DNA from: Acutalibacteraceae bacterium
Lineage (GTDB): Bacteria; Bacillota; Clostridia; Oscillospirales; Acutalibacteraceae
Assembly (NCBI GenBank): GCA_045589015.1
Contig: JAZNFG010000053.1
Coordinates: 5,118 to 69,117, forward strand
Length of the DNA stretch: 64,000 nt
Reading direction: 5' to 3'
Each line of letters opens with the position of its first letter. Positions within the stretch are counted from its first letter, which is position 1. Both the position numbers and the translations under genes were made by a program. The notes beneath the pieces were generated by a model. That model had not been told where the DNA came from. It ran no database searches and saw only the letters and a program-made list of their open reading frames with translations. This document shows positions 241-23,337 of this stretch, piece by piece.

Positions 241-416
241 CAGGCTGAATATATCCTGTTTTATGCACCAATTTTTTGTCTTTGTGTATAATTCAGCACA
301 ACTCAACAAACAAAAGTGGACAAAGAAACGGTCAGATAAAGAATTGTTTATTGAAATATGTACAAATTGTGAATATAATTTTAATCGATAAGCATATAGC
401 ATATAGGAGGTATAAT

Positions 417-2090
417 ATGCCCGATAAAATTGTACGCGCTTTCGATTTTCTTAAGGAGTTAAAAAACTACAGCATATATGAATTTCTGAGAGCAAACACG
501 GATGAGCTTGGTGAATACTGCGCTTTTCAGCACCGTGGTAAGGATCACCTGCGCTCGGAAATGATTAATGATGTTGAGGCATTGGCATACTACTACAGCC
601 ACGAGCTCGGATTAAAGAAGAATGACGTATTTTCAATTTTTCTTCCGACGGGTGCAGAATCAATTCTTACATTTTTTGCGCTTAACAAGCTCGGCGTTAT
701 CGTAAATTTCATCCATCCTCTGCTCCCTGCAGAAAACGTAAAAGAAATAATGGAGTTTACGAAATCCAAAGGTATTGTAGCTCTTGACCGACTTGTGAAG
801 ACTCTGATTCCGTATATTTCACAAAGAGGTCTGCCCTGTATCGTCTGCTCTTCCGACACCTATGCCGTTGAAGACAAGTACAGCGTAAAAGTGCCGCAGG
901 AAATCACCGATATGTTTGCAGCAAATAATTATTCCGGCTTCCGTGCATACAATGAAATTTTGAAGCAATACTCCGGTCAGACAGCCGAAACGTTACCGGA
1001 TAACGCAAAGGGTATTGCTGTTTATATGAACGGCGGCGGCACAACCGGCAAAAGCAGAACCATAAAGCTTTCCAACGAAGCACTTAACAACGTTGTGTGC
1101 AAGTGCTGTCAGATAAACAGACCGCCCGAGCAAATAGGTGTCGATACCGAAATTGCATCTATGCCTTATTTCCACGCCTTCGGCTTATGTGCCAGCGGAC
1201 TTATAGGTATGATGAAGGGAATGAAAATGGCTTTCCTTCCGCAGTTTGAAGCAAACGCAGTTCTCGAAATTATGAAGAGAGAAAAGGTTACGGAATTCAA
1301 TGCGGTGCCAAACGGATACAAAAAGCTTTTTGAGCATCCTGAGTTTGACGGTCCGCATTTGAAGAATATCAAGGCTTTATTCTGCGGTGCTGATGATATC
1401 AGTCCCGAATTTCTTGAAAAATTCAGAGCAGTTTTGAAAAAGAACGGCTCTGACGCAACAATATGCCAGGGCTACGGACTCACGGAATGCGGTGCAATCT
1501 GCTGTGTAAATCCCGTCTGGGCTAACAAGGACGGCTCAATAGGTACACCTCTTCCCGGAAACGTATTTGAGATATGGGACGATAACGATAATGAGCTTCC
1601 GATAGGTGAAGTCGGTGAAATCGTTATGCGCGGAAATACGATGATGGAGGGCTATCTCACGGAAGACGGACCCGCAGACAGCGGAATATATAAAGCAAAG
1701 GACGGTACGAAATGGGTAAAAACCGGTGATCTTGCTTACCGTGACGAAGACAATTATTATTACTTTGTCGGCAGAAAGAAAAGAGTAATTGTTATCTCAG
1801 GCTACAACGTATACCCGAAAGACATTGAAAAGCTTATGACAGAGCTGCCGTTTATAACGGAATGCTGTGCCGTACAGGGTGTTGTTGACGGAAAACCCAT
1901 TGTAAGGCTTTATACCGTTACCGCAACGAAAGGTAACGAAGAGGAATATAAAAGCTCAATATTAAAGCTCTGCAACGAAAGACTTCCCCACTACTCGGTT
2001 CCGAGAGACATTAAATTTATTGACGCTCTCCCGAGAACCCGCGTTCAGAAGGTTGACTTTATGTCTCTGACAGAGGAGCTTCCTCGATAA
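417..2090 (+). CDS. AMP-dependent acyl-CoA synthetase/ligase (fatty-acid--CoA ligase-like)
   Basis: AGGAGG lies 7 nt upstream of the ATG at 417. Adenylate-forming motifs are present: YMNGGGTTGKSRTI (core A3), GYGLTE (A5) and TGDLAYRDEDNYYYFVGRKK (A8). The track ORF starts at 276, but that extension has no RBS. Confidence 0.8.
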   Translation: MPDKIVRAFDFLKELKNYSIYEFLRANTDELGEYCAFQHRGKDHLRSEMINDVEALAYYYSHELGLKKNDVFSIFLPTGAESILTFFALNKLGVIVNFIHPLLPAENVKEIMEFTKSKGIVALDRLVKTLIPYISQRGLPCIVCSSDTYAVEDKYSVKVPQEITDMFAANNYSGFRAYNEILKQYSGQTAETLPDNAKGIAVYMNGGGTTGKSRTIKLSNEALNNVVCKCCQINRPPEQIGVDTEIASMPYFHAFGLCASGLIGMMKGMKMAFLPQFEANAVLEIMKREKVTEFNAVPNGYKKLFEHPEFDGPHLKNIKALFCGADDISPEFLEKFRAVLKKNGSDATICQGYGLTECGAICCVNPVWANKDGSIGTPLPGNVFEIWDDNDNELPIGEVGEIVMRGNTMMEGYLTEDGPADSGIYKAKDGTKWVKTGDLAYRDEDNYYYFVGRKKRVIVISGYNVYPKDIEKLMTELPFITECCAVQGVVDGKPIVRLYTVTATKGNEEEYKSSILKLCNERLPHYSVPRDIKFIDALPRTRVQKVDFMSLTEELPR

Positions 2091-2198: not shown

Positions 2199-3788
2199 TT
2201 ACAGTTCAAACTTTGCAAACGTCATATACCCTGAAGGGTAAGCCTCGTAAATCAGACCGACAGTATTATCTGCAAGACAGCAAAGACACGAATAGGCATA
2301 AAAGTCCGCATATTTCTCAAAGCAGGCATATTTATCCTTATCTGTAATATTGTATTCCTTTATCCAGCTGACCTTCTCTCCATCGATCCTGCCGAGGAAA
2401 ACCTTTCCATCGGTTCTCGTTCTGTCCTTACCGCCGTGCCCCGTGGGGGTTGCAAGAAGAATGTATCTGCCGTCATTTTCAAGATTATCCGGAAGAACGA
2501 AATCCTCGGGGACAGAAATCACGGAACGCTGACATTGAGGCACCTGAGGCTCAATGCTTTCAAGCCTTCTGAAGGTATCTCCACCGTCACAGGACACACT
2601 CAAGGGAATCTTTCCGCCGCCCTTAGGACGACCGAAGCAAAATACCTTTCCGTCAGGCATCTGAACAAGCTGACATTCATCAACATTTTCGCAGAAATCC
2701 CCTTTATTTCGTCTCCAGCTCAGTCCCGAATCATCACTTATAAGCACAAGAGCCTTATTAAGAATATAACAAGGAGCAAGAATCCTTCCTTTAAACCTCT
2801 CATCACTCAGAGTAATGCCGACTCCCGGACCGACACCGAGAAAGGCTCCGTCAGAATCCTTTTTATAATACGGGGTTATATCAACAGGCTGTGAAAATGT
2901 TTTTCCTCCGTCCGTGCTTTCCAATTTATATATGTAAGAAACCAACGAAGCTCTGAGCGGAGCCGCAGACGTTTCAATACACAGCAAATTTCCCTCTTTG
3001 TCATAAACCTTCTCTTTTTTCACAAATTTTATATGCTTTTCGTTGAATTTGTCCTTATTTTTACTGACAAAAATATTACCCACGTAAACGTCCTCACCGA
3101 AAACGCTTTCGGGTATAAGAGGAGGATATTCATTGAGATACTGAGGGGTATCGCCACAGCAGTAATACATATCGCCAATTGTTGAATATTCATATTCGGG
3201 ATTATGATTTTTAGGAACGTAAAACTTAGTTTTTTTGCCGGAGGGTGAATATACAAAGCCATCCTCCCGTAAAGTATATTCCTTGCCTTTTCGACAGAAG
3301 CTGCCGTTAAGCTTAGATCTTCCCGTATACAATTTCAAGGCAAATCCCTTGTCAGTCTTGACATAACCGCTTCCCTTTTCAAGAAGACGCGATGCGTGAA
3401 GTCCCTTGCATTCAGGATAAAAATCGACAAGCATTATTACTTTACCGTCATCAGTCTCCATCAGAAGCGGGTCTATGGCAAATGCTGAGGTATACTCGTT
3501 TCCGTCAAAGGGATATTTTCGCACAGGCGGAGAAAAAACGGTATTCATATCTGAAAAGGTTGCGCCGTTGTCACAGCTTCTTCTGACAGCTATCTCTATA
3601 AATCCCCAGTCCGCACCGCAGGATGCCTTATCAGCGGCTGCAATTACCGTTCCCTTATGTTCTCCGTTTTTTATCGTCAGAAGCGCAGGAATTCTGCCGT
3701 CCTTCATATTGGAAAATTGTTTTTTATCGGTATAGAACTTCTTGAAGCTTTCATTATTCTCACCGACAAAAAGCGGAAAATCCTTCAT
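2199..3788 (-). CDS. GH33 exo-alpha-sialidase (neuraminidase), no signal peptide
   Basis: An RIP motif (DGRIPALL) is present, with four Asp-boxes: SCDNGATF, STDGGKTF, SDDSGLSW and SCDGGDTF. The track starts at the TTG at 3797. The ATG at 3788 has better spacing to the GAGG. Confidence 0.85.
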   Translation of the reverse strand: MKDFPLFVGENNESFKKFYTDKKQFSNMKDGRIPALLTIKNGEHKGTVIAAADKASCGADWGFIEIAVRRSCDNGATFSDMNTVFSPPVRKYPFDGNEYTSAFAIDPLLMETDDGKVIMLVDFYPECKGLHASRLLEKGSGYVKTDKGFALKLYTGRSKLNGSFCRKGKEYTLREDGFVYSPSGKKTKFYVPKNHNPEYEYSTIGDMYYCCGDTPQYLNEYPPLIPESVFGEDVYVGNIFVSKNKDKFNEKHIKFVKKEKVYDKEGNLLCIETSAAPLRASLVSYIYKLESTDGGKTFSQPVDITPYYKKDSDGAFLGVGPGVGITLSDERFKGRILAPCYILNKALVLISDDSGLSWRRNKGDFCENVDECQLVQMPDGKVFCFGRPKGGGKIPLSVSCDGGDTFRRLESIEPQVPQCQRSVISVPEDFVLPDNLENDGRYILLATPTGHGGKDRTRTDGKVFLGRIDGEKVSWIKEYNITDKDKYACFEKYADFYAYSCLCCLADNTVGLIYEAYPSGYMTFAKFEL

Positions 3789-3856
3789 AACCATCAACCT
3801 CTAAAGTTTTTTTGTAATAATACCACAAAATTTTCAATTTGGCAACAACCTTTCTA

Positions 3857-3885
3857 TTGCAAAAATATATTTATTATGGTAAAAT
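3857..3885 (+). promoter_or_regulatory. Sigma-A-type promoter candidate for the gtrA-like/ceramidase-like operon
   Basis: TTGCAA (3857-3862), a 17-nt spacer, then TAAAAT (3880-3885). This lies about 30 nt upstream of the RBS of the 3915 gene. Confidence 0.5.
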
Positions 3886-3914
3886 TACTCAGAAATAAAA
3901 AGAGGTATAATAAT

Positions 3915-4400
3915 ATGTCTGAAAATAATAACAAAAAAAATATTTTCCAATTTATCAAATTCGCACTTATTTCCTGCTCTGCAGGTATAATTCAGATCGG
4001 AAGCTTCACTCTGATGAATGAGGTTTTGATGAAAACAGATTTTATGCAGAATCTGATTGCATCAAATGAGACCTTTTCAAAAATAATGACAAACGAATAC
4101 GGTCCGATTTACCTTATTGCTCTGATTCTTTCCGTTATATGGAATTTCACCATAAACAGAAAATACACCTTCAAATCCGCGGCAAACATACCTGTTGCTA
4201 TGCTCAAGGTTTTCGGATTCTATCTTGTATTCACCCCCGTATCCACCCTTATAGGAAATTATTTTACCGCAAAATTCGCAAGCATTGCGGCAATCGAATA
4301 TATAGTGCTCATTATCACAATGGCTTGCAATATGATAACAGAGTATCTTTTCTGTAAATTTGTCGTATACCGCAATCAGGAGAACACAGCAGTAAAATAA
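3915..4400 (+). CDS. GtrA-family membrane protein
   Basis: About 160 aa with four hydrophobic segments. Contains FIKFALISCSAGIIQIGSF and the GtrA-typical WNFTINRKYTFKS. The ATG at 3915 follows AGAGG. The track ORF start at 3657 is an unsupported extension. Confidence 0.7.
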   Translation: MSENNNKKNIFQFIKFALISCSAGIIQIGSFTLMNEVLMKTDFMQNLIASNETFSKIMTNEYGPIYLIALILSVIWNFTINRKYTFKSAANIPVAMLKVFGFYLVFTPVSTLIGNYFTAKFASIAAIEYIVLIITMACNMITEYLFCKFVVYRNQENTAVK

Positions 4401-4423
4401 ATTTTTTCAGGGAGAGAAAACAA

Positions 4424-6115
4424 ATGTCAGATTTTTTTACTTCAAAAAAATTTGTCCGTTTTACCGAGGATACAATCCATAAAATCCTCGGTGGATATGC
4501 TGATTCATTACAGGACGGCCCTAAATTCATAAGTGCGGGCGAATATGACAGCAGATACTTTTTCAGCGGAACATCTAAATTTCAGAAAAATCCGTCAAAA
4601 AAAGCCGTATGGAGGCTCGGTTATGCAATTACCGATCTGACACCTTACGATTTTTCAAGCAAAGACTACTATCTCGGAGGTTATCTTACTCCCGATAACG
4701 GCTTCAACAACAGAATTCAGAGCATTGTTGACAAAATGCAATGCAGAATTATTGCACTTGATGACAATTCGGGAAACGGTACATCATTTTTTGCAACAAT
4801 AGACTGTATCGGCACGGGCAATACGGATATTAAGCTTATTCGAAGAAGATTCATTGACTTGATGAAATACAAATATCCGGACGCAAAAATTGCCTCGGTA
4901 AACGTATTTTCAACACACGCACATTCCTGTGTTGATACTCAGGGACTCTGGACTGATACGCTGTCAAAGGTTTTGCATAACAGAAAAAAGAACAAAACAG
5001 GCAAAGGTACTTACATTCAGGGGGCAGACAGCGAATTTATGAACGCTCTTGCCTCAAAGATTGCCGAAGGTCTGTTAAAGGCCTATGAGGATATGACTCC
5101 CGGCTCAATGACCTTTGCGCAAAAGGATATCGGTGACGTTTATTTTACGAACAAAAACCGAAAATCCGCATCAAGCCTTGTAACTAATCTTACGAGACTT
5201 GTATTTACTCCCGAGGACAAGGAAAAAACTCCCACAATAATCGCGACAATGGGTGCTCATCCCGACGTTGCAGGACTGCCCACCTCTGACGGACACGGCT
5301 CGGGCAGAGACCTCTGCGGTGAATATATCTACTATATGGGTGAAACCGTTAACAAAGCAGGCTTCAATTTTATGTTCTTCAACGGTGCCATCTGTGCAAT
5401 TTATATGTCCTGCGGACCAAGTGATGACGGGGTTACTCTTCCCCACAGATATGATAAATCCGTACGCTTCGGAATTGAGCTCGGAAAAATTGTTCTTTCG
5501 CTGACAAAATCACTTGATGAAATAAAATCCGATATATTACTTTATAACGAAGAAGAAATTGAACGAGAAACAAAGGAATCAGCCGCAAACGGCTCAAAGT
5601 ATTCACTTTGGTGCGACAATTGGGCTCCCGTCAAGGAAAAACCCGTCAAGCCAATGCTGAATATCAGACTGAAGGAGGTCCGCTTGTCCGTTACCAATCC
5701 TTTAATTAAAATCGTCGGCAAGCTCAATCTTGTATCCTATAAGGTACTCAGAGAAAATGACGGCACCTACTCTATTGTAACGGAAATCGGATATATGCAA
5801 ATCGGAAAGGACGTAAACATCGTTCTTGTTCCCGGTGAATTCTGTGCAGACCTTCTGACAGGCGGAAACTCACTCAAGGCTGAGGGAGCATTCAACAATA
5901 CCGACTTCCCTTACCCGCCGCTTACGGAAATCTTTAACAAGGATCTTATTGCATTCGGACTTGCAAACGATGCTATCGGATATATTGTTCCCGATAATGA
6001 TTACGTGCTCGGTGAATTCGGTAATCATTATCACGAATTAATAAGCATCGGCAAGCATACAGGCTCCACTATTATCAAATCCTTTATGGAAATGAAAAAT
6101 GAATTGGAGGGATAA
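4424..6115 (+). CDS. Neutral/alkaline-ceramidase-N-terminal-like metallohydrolase, paralogue 1 (cytoplasmic, no signal peptide)
   Basis: GGGAGAG RBS. The motifs are collinear with neutral-ceramidase Zn/catalytic positions: LGYAITDLTP...YLGGY, STHAHSCVDTQG (HxH), GAHPD, VPGEF and FGLANDAIGYIVP. Confidence 0.5.
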   Translation: MSDFFTSKKFVRFTEDTIHKILGGYADSLQDGPKFISAGEYDSRYFFSGTSKFQKNPSKKAVWRLGYAITDLTPYDFSSKDYYLGGYLTPDNGFNNRIQSIVDKMQCRIIALDDNSGNGTSFFATIDCIGTGNTDIKLIRRRFIDLMKYKYPDAKIASVNVFSTHAHSCVDTQGLWTDTLSKVLHNRKKNKTGKGTYIQGADSEFMNALASKIAEGLLKAYEDMTPGSMTFAQKDIGDVYFTNKNRKSASSLVTNLTRLVFTPEDKEKTPTIIATMGAHPDVAGLPTSDGHGSGRDLCGEYIYYMGETVNKAGFNFMFFNGAICAIYMSCGPSDDGVTLPHRYDKSVRFGIELGKIVLSLTKSLDEIKSDILLYNEEEIERETKESAANGSKYSLWCDNWAPVKEKPVKPMLNIRLKEVRLSVTNPLIKIVGKLNLVSYKVLRENDGTYSIVTEIGYMQIGKDVNIVLVPGEFCADLLTGGNSLKAEGAFNNTDFPYPPLTEIFNKDLIAFGLANDAIGYIVPDNDYVLGEFGNHYHELISIGKHTGSTIIKSFMEMKNELEG

Positions 6116-6117
6116 TT

Positions 6118-7569
6118 ATGGATTTTTCTAAATTAGCATCAGCTGCGCTAAAATCAATCACTCAGATCGGAAAATATGATTATACACAGCCCTTACCCGA
6201 CGGAGAGTTTCATTACACGAAAGAGGCAGAATCGGAATTCTTTACGGCAGGCTTCGGAAAAGCCGTAATGCTGCCCGATGATATCCGAACAAAAAAATAC
6301 TACATCGCAGGTTACGGAGAAAACAATCCCGCGAAGGGAGTCATAGATCCTCAGTATGCACACGCACTCTGGCTCGACGACAACAGCGGCAAGGGCGGAC
6401 ATCTTTTTGTTTCTCTTGACATAGTCGGACTTCTCAATAAAGATGTAAACGCTCTCAAAAAGGCTCTTTCGGAGTTTTCCGAAAAAACCAACTGCCGTTC
6501 AATCACAATAATGAGCACACACAACCACGCCGGTATAGATACAATGGGAATTTGGGGCAAATTGCCTCATACGGGAAAAAACCGTAAATTTATGACGATT
6601 CTCTTTAATGCCGTAATAACTGCTGCCGGCACGGCTTACAGAGAAAGAAAAGAAGGCAGATTATATCACGGTACTATTGAAGTTCCCGATATGCAGGAGG
6701 ATATACGAACTCCCGTCGTTTATTCAAAGACTCTCACAAGATTACGTTTTGTACCGAATGACGGCTCAAGAGAAATTTATTTTCTGAATTTTGCATCGCA
6801 TTCAGAATCATTACAAGGCTGTAACTCTCTTGTCAGCGCTGATTTCCCGTGTTATTTAAGAGAAAAAATCAGAAATGAAACGGGTGCCGAAACAATTTAC
6901 GGTGTAGGCGCAATCGGCGGTATGATCAGTATGGAAATTGAGGATGAGGACAGACTCAGACGTGAAAACAGATTGCTGGAATCAACTCGTAATATCGGCT
7001 ACAAGCTTGCGGACTATGCTTTGAGCATAAGCAATGAAAAGCTCCTCAAGCCGAGAATCAGCTTTATCAAGCAGGAATTCTACGTTCCCGTTGAAAATCC
7101 CGTGCTTACAATTGCGTGCCAGCTCGGTCTTTTGAATGCTGATGCATACTCCGTTCCGTATTCTGATACAAAAGCCCTTAAAACTGAGCTCAATTATTAT
7201 GAAATTGATGATCTTGCCATACTGATGATACCCTGTGAGCTTTTCCCCGAGCTTGCTTACGGCGGCTATCTGTCAGAAGAGGAATCGGCAGAAGGACTGT
7301 CCCCCGATATCAACCCCGTTCCGTTGGTTGATATTGCCGATAACAAAGAGCTTTTGATTTTCGGTCTTGCAAACGACGAATTAGGATACGTTTTACCGCC
7401 CAATGACTTTATGCTCAATACCGACTCTCCTTATCTTGATAAAGCAATTGACAGATTCGGAAGAAGACATTATGAAGAGACAAATTCAATGGGACCCGAA
7501 ACGGCACAGCTTATTGCTGATAATTTCAGCATCATTATGAACAAGGTTAATACTGCTAAGTCAGATTAA
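6118..7569 (+). CDS. Neutral/alkaline-ceramidase-N-terminal-like metallohydrolase, paralogue 2 (no signal peptide)
   Basis: GGAGGG RBS, and only 2 nt after the previous stop. Motifs: AGFGKAVMLP...YIAGY, STHNHAGIDTMG, ASHSES, IPCELF and FGLANDELGYVLP. Confidence 0.5.
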   Translation: MDFSKLASAALKSITQIGKYDYTQPLPDGEFHYTKEAESEFFTAGFGKAVMLPDDIRTKKYYIAGYGENNPAKGVIDPQYAHALWLDDNSGKGGHLFVSLDIVGLLNKDVNALKKALSEFSEKTNCRSITIMSTHNHAGIDTMGIWGKLPHTGKNRKFMTILFNAVITAAGTAYRERKEGRLYHGTIEVPDMQEDIRTPVVYSKTLTRLRFVPNDGSREIYFLNFASHSESLQGCNSLVSADFPCYLREKIRNETGAETIYGVGAIGGMISMEIEDEDRLRRENRLLESTRNIGYKLADYALSISNEKLLKPRISFIKQEFYVPVENPVLTIACQLGLLNADAYSVPYSDTKALKTELNYYEIDDLAILMIPCELFPELAYGGYLSEEESAEGLSPDINPVPLVDIADNKELLIFGLANDELGYVLPPNDFMLNTDSPYLDKAIDRFGRRHYEETNSMGPETAQLIADNFSIIMNKVNTAKSD

Positions 7570-7593
7570 TAAATTTGAAGGAGGAAAAATAAA

Positions 7594-9219
7594 ATGAACA
7601 AAGCAAAAAAAGTGATTGCTCTCGTGCTCAGCGTTTTAATGATTATGTTAACATTAAGCGTTCCTGCATCAGCAGCATCAAAAGTTGACCCGTCAGAGGG
7701 ACTCGGTGCACAGATAGAAGCAAAATTCTATCAGTTACTTGATAAACTCGTTGCTTGTCTCGGCAAGGTTCTCAATCTTTTCATCCCCGGACTTAACTGG
7801 GGCAGCAAATGGCAGAACTTTGACAGCTACCAAACACCTGACGATTTCTATGCCGGCGAGGAAAAATTCGATACGGAAGTAGCCGATGGCGCACAGTGGA
7901 GTGCAGGTTATGCTTATGCGTCCCTTCTTGAAGGTCTTGATATCTTCAACGGCACCTTCTATATGGCAGGTACGCTTGAGGTTACAGAAGGCAGAGTTCC
8001 CACTAAAGTTATTGACGATCAGGGTGTAAGCGTTATTGCACTTTCTGACGGAACAAGCGGCATTTACGTGCAGGCTGTTGTTGACGGTTACGGTCTTGCA
8101 AGAGGTGACGTGCTTGCAATAAGATCAAAGCTTGCTGATTTCGCTGAAGAAAACAACATTATAAGCATCAACGTTTCAGTTCTTCATCAGCATTCCTGCA
8201 TTGACATCCTCGGAATGGGTGCTCCCCTTCTCCCCGCAATTCTCAAAAACCCCGCTCTAAGCCTTATCGGCGGTGATATTGAGGATTACGTAGGCGGCAA
8301 ATCCGTAGAATTTATGAACAATATGTATGAAGTTGTATCAGAAGCAGTTATGACTGCTGTTGATTCAATGGAAACCGGTTCTCTCTACTACGGAAGCGTA
8401 GATGCAAGTGAGCTTATCTACGACAAGCGTGAGCCTATCACTTTCGACGGTGAGCTTCACAGATTCCGTTTTGATCCCGATAATGAAGAAACCGATGAAA
8501 TCTGGCTTTGCGAAGCCGGTATTCATTGTGTCGGCTTCGGTGCAGGCGCAGACGTTATTTCTGCTGACTTCCCCTACTATTTCAAGCAGTACGCAAAAGA
8601 AACAGCCAACGCTGACGTAGTTTACGTTCAGGGTGCTGAGCTTGCAATTACAACCGATTACACTTACGTAAGACCTGACTCCAGCGACGATGAGGTAAGA
8701 GTAAAGGCCTACGGTGAAGAGCTTGCTAAGAAGGCTATGTCAATTGACAATGAAGTTGAGCTTGAGCCCGTTCTCAACGTAGCTTTCAAGGAGGTTGTTA
8801 TTGATACTGATAATCAGATTCTTACTCTTGTGGTAAGAGAAGGCCTTATAAACAGCGTTATCACAAAGGATATGCTGGGATATAACATTATTACCGAAAT
8901 AGGCTATATGGAACTCGGCAACAAGATCGGCGTAGTGTTCATTCCCGGTGAAGTTGCTCCCGAAATTATCTGGGGCGGTGTTGTCGGTGCGGACAAGAGC
9001 TGGACTAACGAAACCTGGGACTACGCACCTATGGCTGAAACTGCCAAGATTGACAAGCTTCTTTGCTTCGGTCTTAACAACGACCAGATAGGTTATATTC
9101 TTGCAGATAACGATATTCATTCTATGTTTACGGAAAATGAAGAAATCAATGCTTCATCAACAAAATCAGGTTCTGCATTAACTGAGGCCTTTGAAGAGCT
9201 TATTGCAGCAGTAAAATAA
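7594..9219 (+). CDS. Neutral/alkaline-ceramidase-N-terminal-like metallohydrolase, paralogue 3 (secreted; signal peptide)
   Basis: GGAGG RBS. Signal peptide MNKAKKVIALVLSVLMIMLTLSVPASA. Motifs: VLHQHSCIDILG, GIHCVG, IPGEVA and FGLNNDQIGYILA. Confidence 0.5.
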   Translation: MNKAKKVIALVLSVLMIMLTLSVPASAASKVDPSEGLGAQIEAKFYQLLDKLVACLGKVLNLFIPGLNWGSKWQNFDSYQTPDDFYAGEEKFDTEVADGAQWSAGYAYASLLEGLDIFNGTFYMAGTLEVTEGRVPTKVIDDQGVSVIALSDGTSGIYVQAVVDGYGLARGDVLAIRSKLADFAEENNIISINVSVLHQHSCIDILGMGAPLLPAILKNPALSLIGGDIEDYVGGKSVEFMNNMYEVVSEAVMTAVDSMETGSLYYGSVDASELIYDKREPITFDGELHRFRFDPDNEETDEIWLCEAGIHCVGFGAGADVISADFPYYFKQYAKETANADVVYVQGAELAITTDYTYVRPDSSDDEVRVKAYGEELAKKAMSIDNEVELEPVLNVAFKEVVIDTDNQILTLVVREGLINSVITKDMLGYNIITEIGYMELGNKIGVVFIPGEVAPEIIWGGVVGADKSWTNETWDYAPMAETAKIDKLLCFGLNNDQIGYILADNDIHSMFTENEEINASSTKSGSALTEAFEELIAAVK

Positions 9220-9238
9220 ACAATAAGGCATAAATTTT

Positions 9239-9270
9239 GAGCACCTTTCTTCGGGAAGGTGCTCTGTTTT
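9239..9270 (+). terminator. Intrinsic terminator of the gtrA-like/ceramidase-like operon
   Basis: GAGCACCTT-tcttcggg-AAGGTGCTC hairpin followed by TGTTTT, 20 nt after the stop at 9219. Confidence 0.75.
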
Positions 9271-9281
9271 ATACAAATATA

Positions 9282-9716
9282 TTACAGCTCTTTTCTGAAG
9301 CAAACTATTCTGTTCACCTCTTCAAAGCCTAAGGCGTAATGAAAATTCAAGCTGTCGGAATTCTCAATTTCGCAGTCGCTTGCGAATTCCGTACAGCCTT
9401 TTTCTTTCGCCCATAACTCACATTCGTGCAACAGTTCTTTTGCGTAGCCTTTATGCTGATATTCGGGAACAACGAATATTCCTTCCAGATAACCGACGGG
9501 AGATGAGTGTGTACCCTCAACATAATCGTGGCGAAGCTGACATTGTGCAAAGCCAACGGGAATATCATCAATATATTTTATAAAACAAACAGAATCTTTG
9601 TTTAAAACAATCTCGGCAAAGTCTGCATCAAGTTCCGAAACTGTGTGATTACTCCACATTTGTATTGCTAATTCTGCTAATATCCTTGTGTCGTTTGGGG
9701 TTGCTTTTCTTATCAT
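9282..9716 (-). CDS. AAC(6')-I-family-like aminoglycoside N-acetyltransferase (GNAT)
   Basis: GFAQCQLRHDYVEGTHSSPVGYLEGIFVVPEYQHKGYAKELL...GCTEFASDCEIENSDSLNFHYALGFEEVNRIVCFRKEL closely follows the AAC(6')-I pattern (RHDYV.G..SSPV..LEGI.V, GC.E.ASD, ALGFEE). The ATG at 9716 follows AAGAGGTG and overlaps the upstream stop as ATGA. Confidence 0.7.
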   Translation of the reverse strand: MIRKATPNDTRILAELAIQMWSNHTVSELDADFAEIVLNKDSVCFIKYIDDIPVGFAQCQLRHDYVEGTHSSPVGYLEGIFVVPEYQHKGYAKELLHECELWAKEKGCTEFASDCEIENSDSLNFHYALGFEEVNRIVCFRKEL

Positions 9717-10588
9717 AGTCGCACCTCTTTTGTGTACCAACTTGGCACGGGATTCTGCATATTGTCATACCATTCAAGCACTTCGTTTGCGAGCTTTCGC
9801 ATAGTCTGAACTTCGCCTTCACCATACGGAATTGCCCACGGCAGAGAGGTGATTGTACCAAGGCAGATATACAATGCAAGAAGCTTCCAGAACTCAATAG
9901 GCACATCATTGTCAAAATATCCGTTGACGATACCCGAAGCGAAAAGCGGAGAAGCCTGTGCACACCAAGTGATACTCTTGAATTCTTCCCAAGGATCGCC
10001 GAAATCATAGCGGTCAAAATCGATAATAACAACCTTGTCGTTTTCAATCATCATATTGCCGATGTGATAATCACCGTGCTGAAACACCTGCGGTCTGCCT
10101 TTGAGCAGATAACGGTTTGCGTTGATGAAGTCAATAAAAGACTGACCGTTATCATATTTCAGCGAACATTCGTTATATTTTCTGATTCTCAAATCAGCCT
10201 TATCGTTTATACGGGTTTCCCAATCAGGTTGGTTTTCGGGTGCAGGGATTGAATGAATTTTCTTCAGAATTCTGCCTGCTTCAAGACCGAGTGCATACTG
10301 CTCGGAATCAGCAAGATACGGTATAATCTCATTTGCATCCTTACCGTCAATCCAAGTCTGTAAAGTATAAACACCTTCGTCGCACTTTCCGAAGTCAACA
10401 GGTTTGCACATAGGAACACCGAGCTTTTCAACCTCTTTTTGCATAAGGTACATATTTTCACGATTGGCACTTTTGTCAAAAGGTGTAATACGCAGAAGAT
10501 ATTTAGTACCGTCGGCGGTTATAACACAGAATTTTTTGTCGCATGACCAACCTTTATTTATGGGTTCTTTTGATATGAATTCAATCAT
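9713..10588 (-). CDS. Aminoglycoside/antibiotic phosphotransferase (APH) family kinase
   Basis: APH catalytic loop and metal-binding region FQHGDYHIGNMMIENDKVVIIDFDRYDFGDPWEEF. There are ATGA overlaps at both ends (9713-9716 and 10585-10588). Confidence 0.7.
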   Translation of the reverse strand: MIEFISKEPINKGWSCDKKFCVITADGTKYLLRITPFDKSANRENMYLMQKEVEKLGVPMCKPVDFGKCDEGVYTLQTWIDGKDANEIIPYLADSEQYALGLEAGRILKKIHSIPAPENQPDWETRINDKADLRIRKYNECSLKYDNGQSFIDFINANRYLLKGRPQVFQHGDYHIGNMMIENDKVVIIDFDRYDFGDPWEEFKSITWCAQASPLFASGIVNGYFDNDVPIEFWKLLALYICLGTITSLPWAIPYGEGEVQTMRKLANEVLEWYDNMQNPVPSWYTKEVRL

Positions 10589-11496
10589 TGGCTCAATCCC
10601 ATTTCTTTCATTTTCTTTATCAATCTTTTTGCACGGAACATCAGATAATCGTGTCCCATTTCACCCAAGAGAATATACCAATTCAGCTCGTTGCACAGGG
10701 CATAAAGTTCGACTTTTAAATCGCAGTATTTCGAGGTCGGATTTCTCTTTTTATATTCATCATAAAGCTTGAGCTTTTCACCGAAGCCGAGTGTAAGACA
10801 GAATATCTCATATTCGGGTTCTGCCCACAGCATATCGAACGGGTCAACCGCACCTGCAAGCTCGGATTTCCAAAAATCAATTATCAGATTCGGCATCCAG
10901 AAATCGCCGTGACAAAGGCAGGCGGTGTTGTCGGTAACGCTGAATATTTCATCGAAATTCTTGTTGATAAACTCAACCGCTTCCATAATCTCGGGTTCAA
11001 TTTCGTTTTTCTCAAATTTCGCTTTTGTAAAAGCGTAAATATCGACGAAATAATCTTTATAATACTCCGCCCAAGTGTCATAAACAGGGGTGTTGTATTT
11101 GCCGAACTTGTCGTTATGCACGCTTTGTGCGTTCATAAGAGCATCAATAATACTGTTTCTGAGCCGTTTTCTTGACGGAACAAATGCAAGATATTTGCTC
11201 TTACCGCTCATTCCTTTTATGTAATCCATACCGAGATAAACGGCGTCATTTTCACGGTGTAGAAAATATGTTTTCGGAACTTTATATGAAACCTTGGGAG
11301 AAAGAAAATCAAGCATATCCTTTTCTTTACAAATTGCATCATAGAATTTGCTCGTTTTGACTGCAATTTCATAAGGCTTGGTTGTGATTTTTACAAGACA
11401 AACACTTCCGCTTGCACCCTTGCCGACAGCACGGATTTTGCTGACCTTCGTGTTCATTTGCTTTTCAACAACCGATTTGATTAAATCTGTATTCAT
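10585..11496 (-). CDS. Second APH/fructosamine-kinase-superfamily phosphotransferase
   Basis: Glycine-rich N-lobe VGKGASGSVCLV...IAVK and catalytic region CLCHGDFWMPNLIID...DPFDMLWAEPEYE. It is a distinct paralogue of the downstream kinase. Confidence 0.6.
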   Translation of the reverse strand: MNTDLIKSVVEKQMNTKVSKIRAVGKGASGSVCLVKITTKPYEIAVKTSKFYDAICKEKDMLDFLSPKVSYKVPKTYFLHRENDAVYLGMDYIKGMSGKSKYLAFVPSRKRLRNSIIDALMNAQSVHNDKFGKYNTPVYDTWAEYYKDYFVDIYAFTKAKFEKNEIEPEIMEAVEFINKNFDEIFSVTDNTACLCHGDFWMPNLIIDFWKSELAGAVDPFDMLWAEPEYEIFCLTLGFGEKLKLYDEYKKRNPTSKYCDLKVELYALCNELNWYILLGEMGHDYLMFRAKRLIKKMKEMGLSQ

Positions 11497-15224: not shown

Positions 15225-16916
15225 TTATTTGTTTCGGATCCTTGCAAAGAAGAATTCTTTTCTTTCGGGGGTATTGATAACAACAACGGGCTTAATCTGA
15301 TTGAGTACTCTGCCCTGTGCTACAAGCGAAGATTTATACGCATCGTAAGAACCCGTCTCAAGCTGATAAACGATAGGCTCTCTGAGCATTCCCCAACGTC
15401 TGTATTTATCATACTTTTCGTTGGTTTCTCTGAAGGCGGTATCGATAAATGCTTCAAGCTCCGCTTTATTTACAGTCGGAATATCAGATTCCGTATCACA
15501 CATAAAAGCATATCTGGGAAGAGCACCTTTCTCATCAGTATCACCATAGAAGCTGTAGCCGTTAAATGAAATATTGAACTTTTTCTGAATCTCATTGGCT
15601 ACGTAATCAAGCATCTGCGTGGTAGTCTTTTCGTTTGAAACGTTAAGACCCATATTTGATCTGTAAAGGAATTCAATCTTAGGTGTCTTATTATGCATTC
15701 CCGTAACTCTCACGATATCAAGTATGCGATATCTGTAAAGACCTGAGAAATTAGTCACAATAATTTCGTATTCCTTGCCGACTTCAAGCTCATCCATAAA
15801 CAGAGGTCTTGTTCCGTCGGGGGCATCAACAGGCAGGAACTCATAAATTATACTTCTCGGAAGAAGCACGTAGTCGTTTGCGTTAAGAGTTATCGGCATA
15901 GCCATATAGCCCTCAGAGGCGGCATATCCCATATTATGAAGCGGTATATCTCCGATATATCTGCGTAGCTTTTCAACGTAAACCGAAAGCGTAGAGCTTA
16001 TCATACCGTAGCCCCAGCAAACATTAGGCCATATTCTCTTTGCGATAGGCTCTTCCGTGTCAAAGCCCTTTTCAAATTCAGCGCGAAGCTCGGCGGCTCT
16101 CTTGGGATCGGGCTTTAATTTTTCATACTTTTTACGAAGAGACTCGGGACATCTGACAGACGGGTCAATTGTGCCGTTTTCAATATCCTTGCAAATCATT
16201 TCCCAATTTGCCTCAAGATATTCAAACATTGTAAGCATAAGAGTAATTACCATTGAGCCGAGGTATGTGACCTTGCGGTTGGTAAGAGCAAATCTCAGCT
16301 GAAAATAGGACATATCCGTATGCTCTTCATCCTCAGGGAAAAGAATATCGAGAGGGGTGGTTGAGAAAAACGGAATCAGCGGAAGAAGATATGTAAACGG
16401 AATCTGTCCCGCACCGTTACAACGCATACCGTTCTTAAGAGGATGTCCGTTAAGAGAAAGAAGAAGAGGTCCCATCTGTCCGGGAAGGCTTTTGTAAATA
16501 CCCTTTTCCTTAAAATACTTTGCGGCGCAAGCAGGAGTTGCGGCAAAGCCCATAGACTGCATATTAAAAAGGTCCTTTGCCGTTTTGGGCTGCAGCTTGG
16601 GAATACCAACGCTGCCCGAGGAGGAGCAATATCTTATTACCTTACTGCCTGTGATAACGTTCTCCTCATTATTATCAATCATTCGGTTAATAAGAGGCAG
16701 ATAATCCTCAAAGGTTGAAAGCGGTACCTTATCCTGAAATTCTCTGAGATTATGAATTTCAGAAAAGCCGTATTTTCTTCCGAGCTCACAATCCTTGTTT
16801 CTTTTTATAATTGCTTCAAGTGTTTTTTGCTGGGTCTCCATTGGAATAGAAGTAAAATGATTAAAGCCGGTAAAAACTATATTTCCCAAAAAAACACCGA
16901 TATTGGAAACTGCCAT
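15225..16916 (-). CDS. Bacterial GH3-family (JAR1-like) acyl-adenylate-forming amido-synthetase homologue, copy A
   Basis: GH3 nucleotide-binding motifs: CSSSGSVGIPKLQP (SSGTT-like), MGYAASEGYM (YxxSE-like) and GLYRYRILDIVRV (YRxGD-like). The ATG at 16916 lies 8 nt after AAGGAGA. Confidence 0.7.
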   Translation of the reverse strand: MAVSNIGVFLGNIVFTGFNHFTSIPMETQQKTLEAIIKRNKDCELGRKYGFSEIHNLREFQDKVPLSTFEDYLPLINRMIDNNEENVITGSKVIRYCSSSGSVGIPKLQPKTAKDLFNMQSMGFAATPACAAKYFKEKGIYKSLPGQMGPLLLSLNGHPLKNGMRCNGAGQIPFTYLLPLIPFFSTTPLDILFPEDEEHTDMSYFQLRFALTNRKVTYLGSMVITLMLTMFEYLEANWEMICKDIENGTIDPSVRCPESLRKKYEKLKPDPKRAAELRAEFEKGFDTEEPIAKRIWPNVCWGYGMISSTLSVYVEKLRRYIGDIPLHNMGYAASEGYMAMPITLNANDYVLLPRSIIYEFLPVDAPDGTRPLFMDELEVGKEYEIIVTNFSGLYRYRILDIVRVTGMHNKTPKIEFLYRSNMGLNVSNEKTTTQMLDYVANEIQKKFNISFNGYSFYGDTDEKGALPRYAFMCDTESDIPTVNKAELEAFIDTAFRETNEKYDKYRRWGMLREPIVYQLETGSYDAYKSSLVAQGRVLNQIKPVVVINTPERKEFFFARIRNK

Positions 16917-17013
16917 ATACACTATCTCCTTTTTAAATTTTCATATAATTTTATCACAACATTGTTAATCTTTCAACTCTAATATTTATCATTTAAGTTA
17001 TTTACACGCTAAA

Positions 17014-17683: not shown

Positions 17684-19933
17684 ATGAAAAAGATGAAAAA
17701 ATTAACGGCATTCTTTCTTTCGGTTGTGATTATTGCTGCTTCTGCAGTTATTGCATCCTATGCCGCCGATGCCGATACACGTATTTTGAATATTTATTCC
17801 GACGGTATGCTGTTTCTTCAGAATTCTGAGGCTGTAATCTCCGGCACAGGCACTCCCGGCGAAAAAATAACGCTGACACTCACGGATAACCAAGATGTGA
17901 TTGCCGAATCGGAGACGGAAGTTCTTTCCGACGGTTCGTTTAACGTCAGCTTCAATACACCTGCAGGAAGCTTTACGGAATATACCATCGTGCTTAAAGA
18001 AAACGGCAAAGTATTTGATACACTTGAAAACGTTGTTTTCGGTGAATTATGGCTTGCAAGCGGTCAGAGCAATATGCAATATCCTCTGGCACAGTCAAAA
18101 ACCGGACAGGATATGTACAAAAATTCACGAAAGCTGAGCCCTTGGCTTAGAGTATTGCTTGTACCTTCTTACCCCGAATACAATAATTCCACCGAGCTCG
18201 TACCCGCACTCGAACAAAATGATATTACGGATGCCTTATGGGTAAACGGTGAAAATACGGCAGTTTACAATATGAGTGCCGTTGCATATTTCTTTGCAGA
18301 AAAGCTTATGGACACTCTCGGTATGCCCGTGGGAATACTGAATTCATCACTCGGCGGTTCATCAATTCGCTCCTGGCTTTCAAGAGAAGCAATAGAAAGC
18401 AATCCCGAATTTAAGGCATATCTTTCAGAACGGGGAGAATACTTCTCACTTTCAGAATGGAATGAATCCGCTCAAAGTATTTATTATGATATGACCGCTA
18501 ATTTCAATCAGAAAATTGCTCCGTTAAAGAATTTTCGCATTTCGGGAATGCTGTGGTATCAGGGAGAAACTGATCTTATAACAGGCAATACCCGATATGA
18601 TGATGCTCTTGACCTTTTACAGCAATCATACACCGACCTGTTTAACTACAGCGACGGCTTGCTCCCTCTTATTTTTACACAGATTGCTTCATACAACTAT
18701 TCCGAAACATCTGATATGCTCGACAACTGGAATTTTGATTTCACAAAAATGCAACAAAAAGAGTCATCGTCAAGAGCGCTGATTACAATTTATGACATCC
18801 CTCTTACCTATCTTCCCGAAGCAGGGCTTATTCATCCCGAAAGAAAAGAAGAGGTCGGTCAGCGTATGGCAGCCGCGGCAAACGGACTTTTATATAACAA
18901 AAATGACGGCTATACGACAGCTACAATCAAAAGCACGGAAATTAAGGATAACAGCATTTATATAAAGCTCGATAACACAGGCAGCGGATTAATAATTGAC
19001 GGAAAATCCGCCAAGGGCTTTAGTATTTGCGGAAGCGACGGCATCTACGTTTCAGCAACAGCGGAGGTGGTTTCACCCGATACCGTAAGGGTTTATTCTG
19101 CGGAGGTTTCTCATCCGGAATCCGTAACCTATGCTTTCGGCGTTGCGAATCAGAGCGCAAATCTTTATGCCTCAATTAACGGTGAATTATCTCTTCCTGT
19201 CGCTCCTTTTATAACGAATCCCGAATATTCTCAAAATATATGGATACAAAAATCCTGGTGCGACTGTGATGAGGAGCTTACGTGGCACACTGAGGATGAT
19301 GAATTCTCAGGCTATTACAGCACGTGGAACGGTAATAATGCAGAAATTTCCTATTCGGAAAATGACAGTCAGAACAATACCGTCGGCCTTGGCGTGTCAT
19401 CTCAGAAATGCTCCTTCAGCATCTCACCCGTTATTTCCTATAAAGATAATCTTACACAAAAGATTTTCAAGGATTCGGACAACAACCTTTCAAAATACGG
19501 TACAATAAGCTTTTACGTACGCAATAACGGTAACGAAGCCGTAATATTTGAGGGACTGAGATTCTATCAGAATCCCATTTTATGGTACTCCCCCGAGGTT
19601 TCGGGCACACTTGACACAGCCGCCGAAATCCCCGCAGACGGTCAGTGGCATCAGATTACGCTTAACTTAAATAAATTATATCATCTCGGCAATGAATGCT
19701 CCTTATCCTATACCAACGAAAAGCTTAAGGACATTTCAGAAATACGCTTCGTATTTTCTGCAAACGGAAACAGCATCTCAAAACTCAGCATAGACAATAT
19801 AACATTTGCACCGACAGGCAAAATCACATCAATTCCCTATGAAGTAGATATTAAAAATGCTGACAACATTTTTGAATTATTTACTGCTGTTTTCTTAACT
19901 ATTGTCGGAAAAATTGCTTTGTTATTCAGTTAA
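17684..19933 (+). CDS. Secreted sialate O-acetylesterase-like (SASA/DUF303) protein with a C-terminal extra domain and hydrophobic tail
   Basis: Signal peptide MKKMKKLTAFFLSVVIIAASAVIASYA. SGNH-like catalytic block LWLASGQSNMQYP, then LGGSSIRSW and WYQGETD. The terminal segment is IFELFTAVFLTIVGKIALLFS. Confidence 0.7.
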   Translation: MKKMKKLTAFFLSVVIIAASAVIASYAADADTRILNIYSDGMLFLQNSEAVISGTGTPGEKITLTLTDNQDVIAESETEVLSDGSFNVSFNTPAGSFTEYTIVLKENGKVFDTLENVVFGELWLASGQSNMQYPLAQSKTGQDMYKNSRKLSPWLRVLLVPSYPEYNNSTELVPALEQNDITDALWVNGENTAVYNMSAVAYFFAEKLMDTLGMPVGILNSSLGGSSIRSWLSREAIESNPEFKAYLSERGEYFSLSEWNESAQSIYYDMTANFNQKIAPLKNFRISGMLWYQGETDLITGNTRYDDALDLLQQSYTDLFNYSDGLLPLIFTQIASYNYSETSDMLDNWNFDFTKMQQKESSSRALITIYDIPLTYLPEAGLIHPERKEEVGQRMAAAANGLLYNKNDGYTTATIKSTEIKDNSIYIKLDNTGSGLIIDGKSAKGFSICGSDGIYVSATAEVVSPDTVRVYSAEVSHPESVTYAFGVANQSANLYASINGELSLPVAPFITNPEYSQNIWIQKSWCDCDEELTWHTEDDEFSGYYSTWNGNNAEISYSENDSQNNTVGLGVSSQKCSFSISPVISYKDNLTQKIFKDSDNNLSKYGTISFYVRNNGNEAVIFEGLRFYQNPILWYSPEVSGTLDTAAEIPADGQWHQITLNLNKLYHLGNECSLSYTNEKLKDISEIRFVFSANGNSISKLSIDNITFAPTGKITSIPYEVDIKNADNIFELFTAVFLTIVGKIALLFS

Positions 19934-21256: not shown

Positions 21257-21940
21257 TCAAAAAAATAAAATTTTTACAATATAGATCACCGCAAGATGAA
21301 GCGGATAAAACACATAGAAAAGATATTTCAGATTAAGCTTTCCTCTTTTACCGTTATAAAGCGCGATAAAAGCAACACTTAACAGAGAAAACCATTGTAT
21401 TCCCCCAAGTTCAAAGGAAAGGGGAATCAATACGATAAAGGCGGCAAGAAGCTTATAGGATTTCTTCGGTGCAAAATAGACAGCTATCGGCAGCAGTAAG
21501 CCGAAAAAACCGTAATCAATATGAAATCCCTTCAAAAACGAAGGAACAACAAAGCATAAAGCTAAAGCTACCGCAATATCGGCGGCTAAAATAACACCCG
21601 ATAAAATGTTTTTCTTTTTCAGAAAATGCTCCGCCGCATAAATAGTCAAAATTGAAAGCGCAAAGGTCACAAGTACGTTCTGATACATGGACCCTTCAGC
21701 AATAAAGTAAACTATCTGGCACCCTGCCGCAAGACCTGCTATTTTCAGAAAATACTTCTTTTTATCTCTCGTATAATAGCAACCCTCTGCTATCATAAAA
21801 GAAAACACGGGAAATGCAAGCCGTCCGAAAATCTGCAGAATCGTAAGCTGCGGAAACAGCTCTTTTCCGATATGGTCACTAAGCATTGAAATAACCGCAA
21901 GAATTTTCAGCTGATTATTGGTAAGAGTTAATTTCTTCAT
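21257..21940 (-). CDS. TraX-family integral membrane protein
   Basis: N-terminal LTNNQLKILAVISMLSDHIGK (TraX signature region) and about 7 TM segments. The start overlaps the upstream stop as ATGA (21937-21940). Confidence 0.65.
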   Translation of the reverse strand: MKKLTLTNNQLKILAVISMLSDHIGKELFPQLTILQIFGRLAFPVFSFMIAEGCYYTRDKKKYFLKIAGLAAGCQIVYFIAEGSMYQNVLVTFALSILTIYAAEHFLKKKNILSGVILAADIAVALALCFVVPSFLKGFHIDYGFFGLLLPIAVYFAPKKSYKLLAAFIVLIPLSFELGGIQWFSLLSVAFIALYNGKRGKLNLKYLFYVFYPLHLAVIYIVKILFF

Positions 21941-23322: not shown

Positions 23323-23337
23323 TAAATCACCCAAAAA

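Follow-up and report, generated by a model that had tools for sequence, protein, structure and literature searches.

A chromosomal locus of an uncultured Acutalibacteraceae/Oscillospiraceae gut bacterium was analysed over a stretch of 64,000 nucleotides (the window, to which all coordinates refer). The locus carries a real, conserved and uncharacterised operon, already partly flagged by Pfam, in which a gene for a GtrA-family membrane protein precedes three genes, designated par1, par2 and par3, that encode very distant members of the neutral ceramidase superfamily. On balance, the three products are best regarded as single-domain zinc amidohydrolases with the neutral ceramidase fold, the metal, the chemistry and the substrate class being assigned by homology. 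Judged from the sequences, the substrate would probably be an N-acyl lipid or glycoconjugate.

The four genes were consecutive on the plus strand, in the order GtrA-par1-par2-par3, with intergenic gaps of 23, 2 and 24 nucleotides. An earlier note on the same DNA had described this layout, and its coordinates agreed with the list of open reading frames. The features of the unit, with protein lengths in amino acids (aa), are as follows.

3857-3885, plus strand: promoter-like site, TTGCAA-17-TAAAAT (consensus scan, 9/12 match, TG ahead of the -10 hexamer)
3915-4400, plus strand: GtrA-family membrane protein, 161 aa (Pfam PF04138, four hydrophobic segments, ribosome binding site AAGAGGT upstream)
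4424-6115, plus strand: par1, ceramidase-like hydrolase, 563 aa (paralogy to par2 and par3; no signal peptide)
6118-7569, plus strand: par2, ceramidase-like hydrolase, 483 aa (Pfam PF04734, AlphaFold model; no signal peptide)
7594-9219, plus strand: par3, secreted ceramidase-like protein, 541 aa (AlphaFold model, Foldseek; Asn at the position equivalent to human Tyr591)
7594-7674, plus strand: predicted signal peptide of par3, MNKAKKVIALVLSVLMIMLTLSVPASA, then AS (hydropathy; putative cleavage site)
9239-9274, plus strand: intrinsic-terminator-like hairpin (9239-9264) and T-run, between convergent genes

The three large proteins were mutual paralogues, as the earlier note had claimed. In BLASTP comparisons they were 25-29% identical over nearly their full length, and the E-values, 3e-36 for par1-par2, 2e-48 for par1-par3 and 1e-46 for par2-par3, were far beyond chance. 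A lineage-specific insertion of about 42 aa was present in par1. The ordered motifs that had been listed as common to the three proteins were all found, and they were invariant in 23 par1, 79 par2 and 25 par3 orthologues; here and below, the orthologues with a residue at the position were counted, a few being gapped.

The placement of the proteins in the ceramidase family, also proposed in the earlier note, was examined with domain models, sequence profiles and predicted structures. The hidden Markov model searches upheld it in part. The N-terminal domain model of the neutral/alkaline ceramidases (EC 3.5.1.23), PF04734, matched par2 with 35.6 bits (cut-off 32.1) over profile positions 19-217 of 509 only, and precomputed annotation gave the same match in almost all listed par2 homologues, but neither par1 nor par3 was matched and the C-terminal domain model, PF17048, was not matched at all. 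The NCBIfam search gave no match for par1, par2 or par3. A profile built from par2 orthologues and paralogues retrieved human neutral ceramidase (4wgk, E 3e-7) and the Pseudomonas enzyme (2zws, E 1e-3) from the PDB, and no family other than the neutral ceramidases at E <= 0.01. The fold comparison covered the AlphaFold (AF2) models of par2 (pLDDT 80, pTM 0.85) and par3 (pLDDT 81.6, pTM 0.87), which were searched against the PDB with Foldseek. The significant matches of both models were 2zws, 2zxc and 4wgk only, all neutral ceramidases, with TMq values of 0.55-0.62; the E-values ranged from 1.5e-21 (2zws) to 1e-19 for par2 and from 5.3e-20 (2zws) to 3e-16 for par3. No other fold beat 5e-4 for either model, and the remaining matches were noise, and as far as the fold is concerned the structural check proposed earlier came out in favour of the family. 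The target-normalised TM-scores of par2 and par3 were 0.45-0.51, and the catalytic domain filled the 483-563 aa of the three chains.

Animals, fungi, Pseudomonas and mycobacteria have neutral ceramidases, which are known to be secreted or to act as ecto-enzymes. The best structural match of both models was the Pseudomonas aeruginosa enzyme, PaCD (2zws, 2zxc), with a TMq of about 0.6. PaCD has the HxH, His, Glu and Tyr motifs in the same order and is secreted like par3. However, identity in sequence amounts to 12-15%, par1-3 lack the additional C-terminal Ig-like domain of PaCD, and PaCD is encoded by a single gene rather than a tandem array; moreover, par1 and par2 are predicted to be cytoplasmic and par3 lacks the second catalytic tyrosine. 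The PaCD gene is induced by sphingosine (PMC5150637). The human enzyme ASAH2 (4wgk) was the best match in the PDB at the level of sequence profiles, with an identity of 10-14%. ASAH2 belongs to the type II membrane ectoenzymes; it is glycosylated, contains disulfides and has both an Ig-like domain and a further subdomain of 30 residues (PMC6952831), whereas par1-3 are made up of the catalytic domain alone. With the known family the new proteins have the fold and the predicted core active site in common; they differ from it in domain architecture, in having cytoplasmic forms and tandem mixed arrays, in a subfamily with a Tyr-to-Asn exchange and in taxonomic setting.

The zinc ligands of the human enzyme are reportedly His194, His303, Glu540 and Tyr579. 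The catalytic residues include His196, Arg257 and Tyr591, the last being among those critical for catalysis, and the human numbering was set here via the start of the crystallised chain at residue 99 (PMC6952831). Four residues of par2 were placed on human counterparts by significant profile alignments:

par2 H135: human His194 (human context THTHSG)
par2 H137: human His196 (human context THTHSG)
par2 R197: human Arg257 (human context QINRSP)
par2 H228: human His303 (human context AIHPVS)

The two tyrosines aligned only below the threshold, in a full-length profile alignment that placed GLANDxxGY on GLCNVYTHY (Tyr579) and HYEE on RYEA (Tyr591). Since there was no significant alignment of the C-terminal region, the equivalences of the Glu (PGE) and the Tyr (GY) were taken from the order of the motifs, their invariance and the match of the whole-chain fold. 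The earlier note had lined up the HxH motif, the central histidine, the glutamate of PGE and the tyrosine of GY with positions of the ceramidases; the HxH motif and the central histidine are thus placed by significant alignment, and the glutamate and tyrosine less directly. H135, H137, D141, H228, E374 and Y424 (par2 numbering) were invariant in the orthologues of par1, par2 and par3, H137 being the putative catalytic second histidine of the HxH motif. Among the top 150 family representatives, H135 and H137 were each retained in 145/146, H228 in 146/149, E374 in 143/146 and Y424 in 144/145. Both par2 and par3 carry the counterpart of the catalytic arginine; in par1 a lysine takes its place, and an arginine lies one residue before it. 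The equivalent of Tyr591 was found in par1 and par2, in the motif HYEE or HYHE.

If homology is a guide, two histidines, a glutamate and a tyrosine would hold a single Zn2+ in each enzyme. The second histidine of the HxH motif and the arginine, joined in par1 and par2 by the second tyrosine, would activate a water molecule and stabilise the tetrahedral intermediate, and an N-acyl amide bond would then be cleaved.

The localisation of the proteins was predicted by a hydropathy scan. No transmembrane or N-terminal hydrophobic segment was detected in par1 or par2, or in any of their orthologues (0/23 and 0/79, respectively). In par3 a single N-terminal hydrophobic segment, residues 7-25, was followed by A-S-A, and such a segment was present in 25/25 orthologues; because no cysteine is present, the signal is not of the lipoprotein type. 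The earlier statement that only par3 has a signal peptide and that par1 and par2 are cytoplasmic therefore extends to all orthologues. About two thirds of the family representatives carried an N-terminal hydrophobic segment. All three hydrolases begin with an amphipathic helix, whose hydrophobic moment (muH 0.55-0.59) was in the top percentile within each protein and which would suit peripheral membrane binding, although it is no proof of it. According to these predictions, par1 and par2 would work in the cytoplasm, possibly at the inner face of the membrane via the amphipathic helices, and par3 would be exported by its Sec signal peptide and act extracellularly, its catalytic pocket being changed by the Tyr-to-Asn exchange.

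Relatives of par2 were found in 261 species-level genomes. Eighty par2 loci, all from metagenome-assembled genomes, were kept for comparison. They were labelled nearly without exception as Acutalibacteraceae, Oscillospiraceae, Ruminococcaceae or Clostridia, and many came from ruminant or other animal guts. The most widespread and most conserved subfamily was par2, for which 79 orthologues were found. Three architectures were distinguished: a solo par2 gene, which was the majority, a par2-par3 pair (L019, L022, L025 and L039) and the complete GtrA-par1-par2-par3 arrangement (21 loci). A profile search of the full database gave 5,251 clusters (50% identity) at E <= 1e-3, of which 642 reached E <= 1e-30, and the source organisms, where given, were mostly uncultured Clostridia from animal guts and anaerobic digesters. 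The top 150 representatives included 63 par2-like, 36 par3-like and 32 par1-like proteins, a split which indicates that the operon joins three old subfamilies and did not arise by a recent triplication. Old subfamilies presumably differ in specificity, and the three proteins are therefore likelier to have a substrate each, or to take up consecutive forms of a single class of amide-linked lipid or glycoconjugate, than to be redundant.

Tandem arrays occurred in 17/76 metagenomic loci. Cytoplasmic and exported copies were mixed in the arrays of L095, L099, L147, L149 and L162, counts that are approximate since the hydropathy threshold of this survey misclassifies some signal peptides (L139_3, for example). 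At L083 (4324-10022) four paralogues of 450, 442, 507 and 493 aa, 42-47% mutually identical, stood in a row, the first two cytosolic and the last two with N-terminal transmembrane anchors, flanked by GNAT, ROK, PIG-L and GH20 genes. The occurrence of mixed arrays in unrelated loci makes the division across the membrane a recurrent trait of the family. The earlier description of a triplicated set split across the membrane can thus be kept for the split, which was seen in all orthologues and in mixed arrays elsewhere, but not for a recent triplication.

The solo par2 genes had a conserved setting of their own. At L041 (4196-9389) and about 45 similar loci, genes for a YhhN-family membrane protein, an AlaX-like editing protein, an MBL-fold hydrolase and a YgjP-like metallopeptidase preceded par2 on the same strand; RNase H followed, and further downstream RNase J, a DHH-family protein, L9 and DnaB were read by eye. 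The block is conserved but has the appearance of housekeeping synteny, and these neighbours were rejected as functional partners of par2.

Several points weigh against the assignment of the three proteins as zinc amidohydrolases acting on N-acyl lipids or glycoconjugates, 1) the sequence identity of par2 and par3 to real ceramidases is just 10-15%, 2) par1 and par3 have no Pfam match of any kind and are tied to the PF04734 match of par2 through paralogy only, 3) the C-terminal Ig-like domain is absent, PF17048 matching none of the three proteins, 4) a profile of the C-terminal 120-140 residues retrieved no ceramidase from the PDB, 5) the Tyr591 equivalent is replaced by asparagine in par3, in the motif T(E/Q)NEE(I/V)NA, in 23/23 orthologues with the residue (25 in total, 2 gapped), so that par3, as judged from its sequence, might be inactive or might catalyse a different reaction, 6) no family member has been characterised biochemically, and every name supplied with the sequences is "hypothetical protein", 7) no dominant partner gene emerged among 110 neighbours in 80 diverse metagenomic loci or in five distant contexts, and 8) par2 occurs most often singly, as a cytoplasmic form surrounded by housekeeping genes, which fits an endogenous substrate better than the scavenging of host lipids. 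In addition, Firmicutes are not known to make sphingolipids. Literature searches on PF04734, on bacterial ceramidases of the gut or Clostridia, and on ceramidase together with Clostridium perfringens sialidase, found no paper on the family.

Two sets of neighbouring genes bear on the alternatives. The first lies upstream, where a conserved neighbour diverges from the GtrA gene:

2199-3797, minus strand: GH33 sialidase homologue, 532 aa, no signal peptide (Pfam BNR_2; PDB NanA/NanI 4e-34)

It adjoined 20 array loci and also 2 loci that have GtrA and no array. It is a conserved neighbour of the GtrA gene rather than a demonstrated member of the four-gene unit. The second set consists of the genes adjacent to family members elsewhere. 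The 110 operon-like neighbours from the 80 metagenomic loci included HAD (4), GH16 (4), GH84 (3) and GH2, BadF-type kinase and GDSL lipase genes (2 each), and the neighbours at L086 were a G3P dehydrogenase, a phosphoesterase and a GDSL protein. These contexts are heterogeneous, and the mild over-representation of genes for glycan and lipid catabolism is a hint that falls short of evidence for a pathway.

One alternative, which we regard as unlikely, is that the locus is a glycosphingolipid catabolic module, in which par1-3 are genuine ceramidases that, together with the GH33 sialidase and glycosidases, degrade gangliosides and ceramides of host, dietary or Bacteroidota origin, and an acyl-CoA-synthetase-like AMP-binding enzyme would activate the freed fatty acid. 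Ceramidases are the sole structural relatives of the proteins, as such a module would have it, and the sialidase homologue, where it accompanies an array, stands divergently beside it. The window also contains a SASA-domain (sialate O-acetylesterase-like) protein of 749 aa (17684-19933, plus strand), 14 kb from the GH33 homologue, and an AMP-binding, acyl-CoA-synthetase-like gene (276-2090, plus strand), which separates the sialidase-like gene from the remainder of a conserved upstream block; elsewhere, family members lie beside GH16, GH84, GH2 and GH20 glycosidases and GDSL lipases. However, the sialidase has no signal peptide, and as it is paired with GtrA even where ceramidase-like genes are missing, it may be linked to the array just by coincidence. 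Each glycosidase type accounts for just 2-4 of the 110 neighbour proteins, and the AMP-binding gene was at that position in three genomes only (the window, L010 and L027). A cytoplasmic location is predicted for two of the three enzymes, no lipid importer is evident, and the low identity to ceramidases, given above, counts against genuine ceramidase activity as well.

The alternatives that turn on GtrA depend on how firmly it is joined to the array. GtrA of the serotype-converting GtrABV system and GtcA of Gram-positive bacteria are proposed flippases for polyprenyl-phosphate sugars. The protein encoded here resembles them in its match to PF04138 (33 bits, cut-off 26.1), its small size and its four transmembrane helices, predicted by hydropathy within the 161 aa, and its close orthologues are named "GtrA family protein" by NCBI. 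The open reading frame was listed as 3657-4400, but the DNA read places the likely start at the ATG at 3915, nine bases past AAGAGGT. The flippase activity is putative. In contrast to GtrABV, no GtrB-type or other glycosyltransferase was among the genes annotated between 276 and 25026, nor did the GtrA orthologues of L088-L090 have one as a neighbour, and the conserved partner is instead the divergent GH33 sialidase-like gene.

Co-transcription of GtrA, par1, par2 and par3 is likely in view of their spacing, and the tight spacing or overlap of the genes was kept in the orthologous loci L001, L026 and L095. Each gene was preceded by a Shine-Dalgarno sequence, those of par1, par2 and par3 being GGGAGAG, GGAGG (within the 3' end of par1) and GAAGGAGG, respectively. 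The promoter-like site named in the earlier note was found at 3857-3885; the intergenic region there, between divergent genes, is rich in AT and contains more than one candidate. Given its 9/12 match and the surplus of similar sites in the region (26 observed versus 15.5 +/- 3.9 expected), it is plausible as a promoter but unproven. The terminator proposed in the same note was located: the hairpin at 9239-9264 has an 11-bp stem with 6 GC pairs and a 4-nucleotide loop and is followed by TGTTTTATAC. A scan of the region gave no convincing plus-strand terminator inside the four-gene unit. A terminator-like hairpin with a 12-bp stem was seen on the minus strand within par2 (6462-6489); such sites fall below their expected number in the region, and it is probably a chance occurrence.

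It is quite improbable, in our estimate, that the operon is a GtrA-coupled envelope system, in which the hydrolases deacylate an amino sugar linked to polyprenyl phosphate or a membrane lipid on both faces of the membrane and GtrA flips the intermediate. The precedent would be a loose analogy to the Arn pathway, where a deformylase acts on a lipid-linked sugar before flipping. Such coupling would agree with the 23-nucleotide gap and the missing terminator between GtrA and par1, which are probably co-transcribed, with the retention of the GtrA-array arrangement in 21 loci, with the N-terminal amphipathic helices of all three hydrolases, and with the GNAT, BadF-type sugar kinase, PIG-L and ROK genes beside arrays in L025, L083 and L147. 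On the other hand, a 76%-identical GtrA on human-gut contigs, again diverging from the BNR/GH33 gene, had an arginase-family gene but no ceramidase-like gene beside it; another GtrA orthologue stood alone in an unrelated context, and par1-par2-par3 occurred without GtrA in L033 and L095. A homemade model from close orthologues, which could miss distant GtrA proteins, found no GtrA beside family genes in any of the 80 diverse metagenomic loci, and the 25 Pfam families seen most often in the 110 operon-like neighbours did not include PF04138. Moreover, the genes annotated between 276 and 25026 included no glycosyltransferase, and most par2 genes are solo. The link between GtrA and the array looks lineage-specific and weak, and rather than an obligatory partner GtrA is most likely an older resident gene that had the array joined to it. 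In the synteny comparison, which the earlier note had proposed, 21 loci had the arrangement of GtrA with three paralogues and two arrays were without GtrA, and the idea that GtrA is a functional partner of general significance was not supported.

It seems equally doubtful that the set is partly non-catalytic, par3 and possibly others being pseudoenzymes or binding proteins in which the fold and the metal site are retained but hydrolysis is lost; in another form of this proposal, the fold would support a reverse, condensing reaction or the hydrolysis of peptides or esters. The replacement of a tyrosine that is critical in the human enzyme (PMC6952831) by asparagine in every par3 orthologue speaks for such a role. 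The asparagine variant moreover forms a recurrent and almost always exported subfamily, with 21/150 of the top representatives, 20/21 of them exported. However, the four putative metal ligands, the general-base histidine and the arginine are strictly kept in par3, and the strong purifying conservation of the T(E/Q)NEE(I/V)NA motif points to a functional variant site rather than decay. A role in defence was rejected, since the PADLOC models found nothing relevant at the locus.

Within the preferred reading of par1-3 as zinc amidohydrolases, the three ancient subfamilies might conceivably form a hitherto unrecognised membrane-spanning pathway for amide lipids in Gram-positive gut anaerobes, a version that we consider a long shot. 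The par3 variant would release or trim an N-acylated (glyco)lipid outside the cell, par1 and par2, attached to the periphery of the membrane in the cytoplasm, would finish its breakdown or remodel an endogenous N-acyl lipid, and in this clade GtrA would move the intermediate across the membrane. If so, Firmicutes would have their first described system for the catabolism of ceramides or N-acyl lipids, and GtrA would gain a new role. More generally, a very large branch of the superfamily (about 5,250 clusters at 50% identity) is without a characterised member. If the enzymes cleave ceramides or N-acyl lipids, they would supply a missing microbial step in the turnover of gut sphingolipids and lipo-amides; if they act on other substrates, the chemistry of the ceramidase fold would be extended. 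The conserved residues are direct targets for mutagenesis, and for expression the natural starting point is the strictly conserved solo par2.

A number of further genes were noted around the operon and near arrays. Downstream, on the minus strand, a GNAT gene (9282-9740) matched the NCBIfam model AAC_6p_group_E (aminoglycoside 6'-N-acetyltransferase) with 198.5 bits (cut-off 140) and was followed on the same strand, with overlapping ends, by an APH-family kinase (9713-10588) and a fructosamine-kinase-like gene (10585-11496). From their annotation, the genes of 9282-11496 may constitute an aminoglycoside- or amino-sugar-modifying operon in a gut commensal.

Also nearby were two homologues of plant GH3 acyl-acid amido synthetases and a weak condensation-domain protein, together with TraX, an MFS transporter and GNATs; the minus-strand coordinates of the GH3/condensation-like group are 15225-16922, 23338-25026, 21937-23334 and 21257-21940. 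Amide-forming GH3 homologues thus lie near amide-cleaving candidates, a proximity that recurs in close relatives only. The GH3/condensation-like genes were rejected as a functional link because, apart from one weak case (L169), they recur near the family only in those relatives.

Finally, a secreted protein of about 610 aa, without a Pfam family, recurred near arrays, at L001 (984-2813, minus strand), L019, where it lies directly upstream of par2, and L026, and a similar protein was found at L139 (6649-8475, minus strand). It carries the motif CxC...PxIV(I/V)PG(I/V)(F/G)QS and gave a faint lipase-like match in the PDB (E 0.23).

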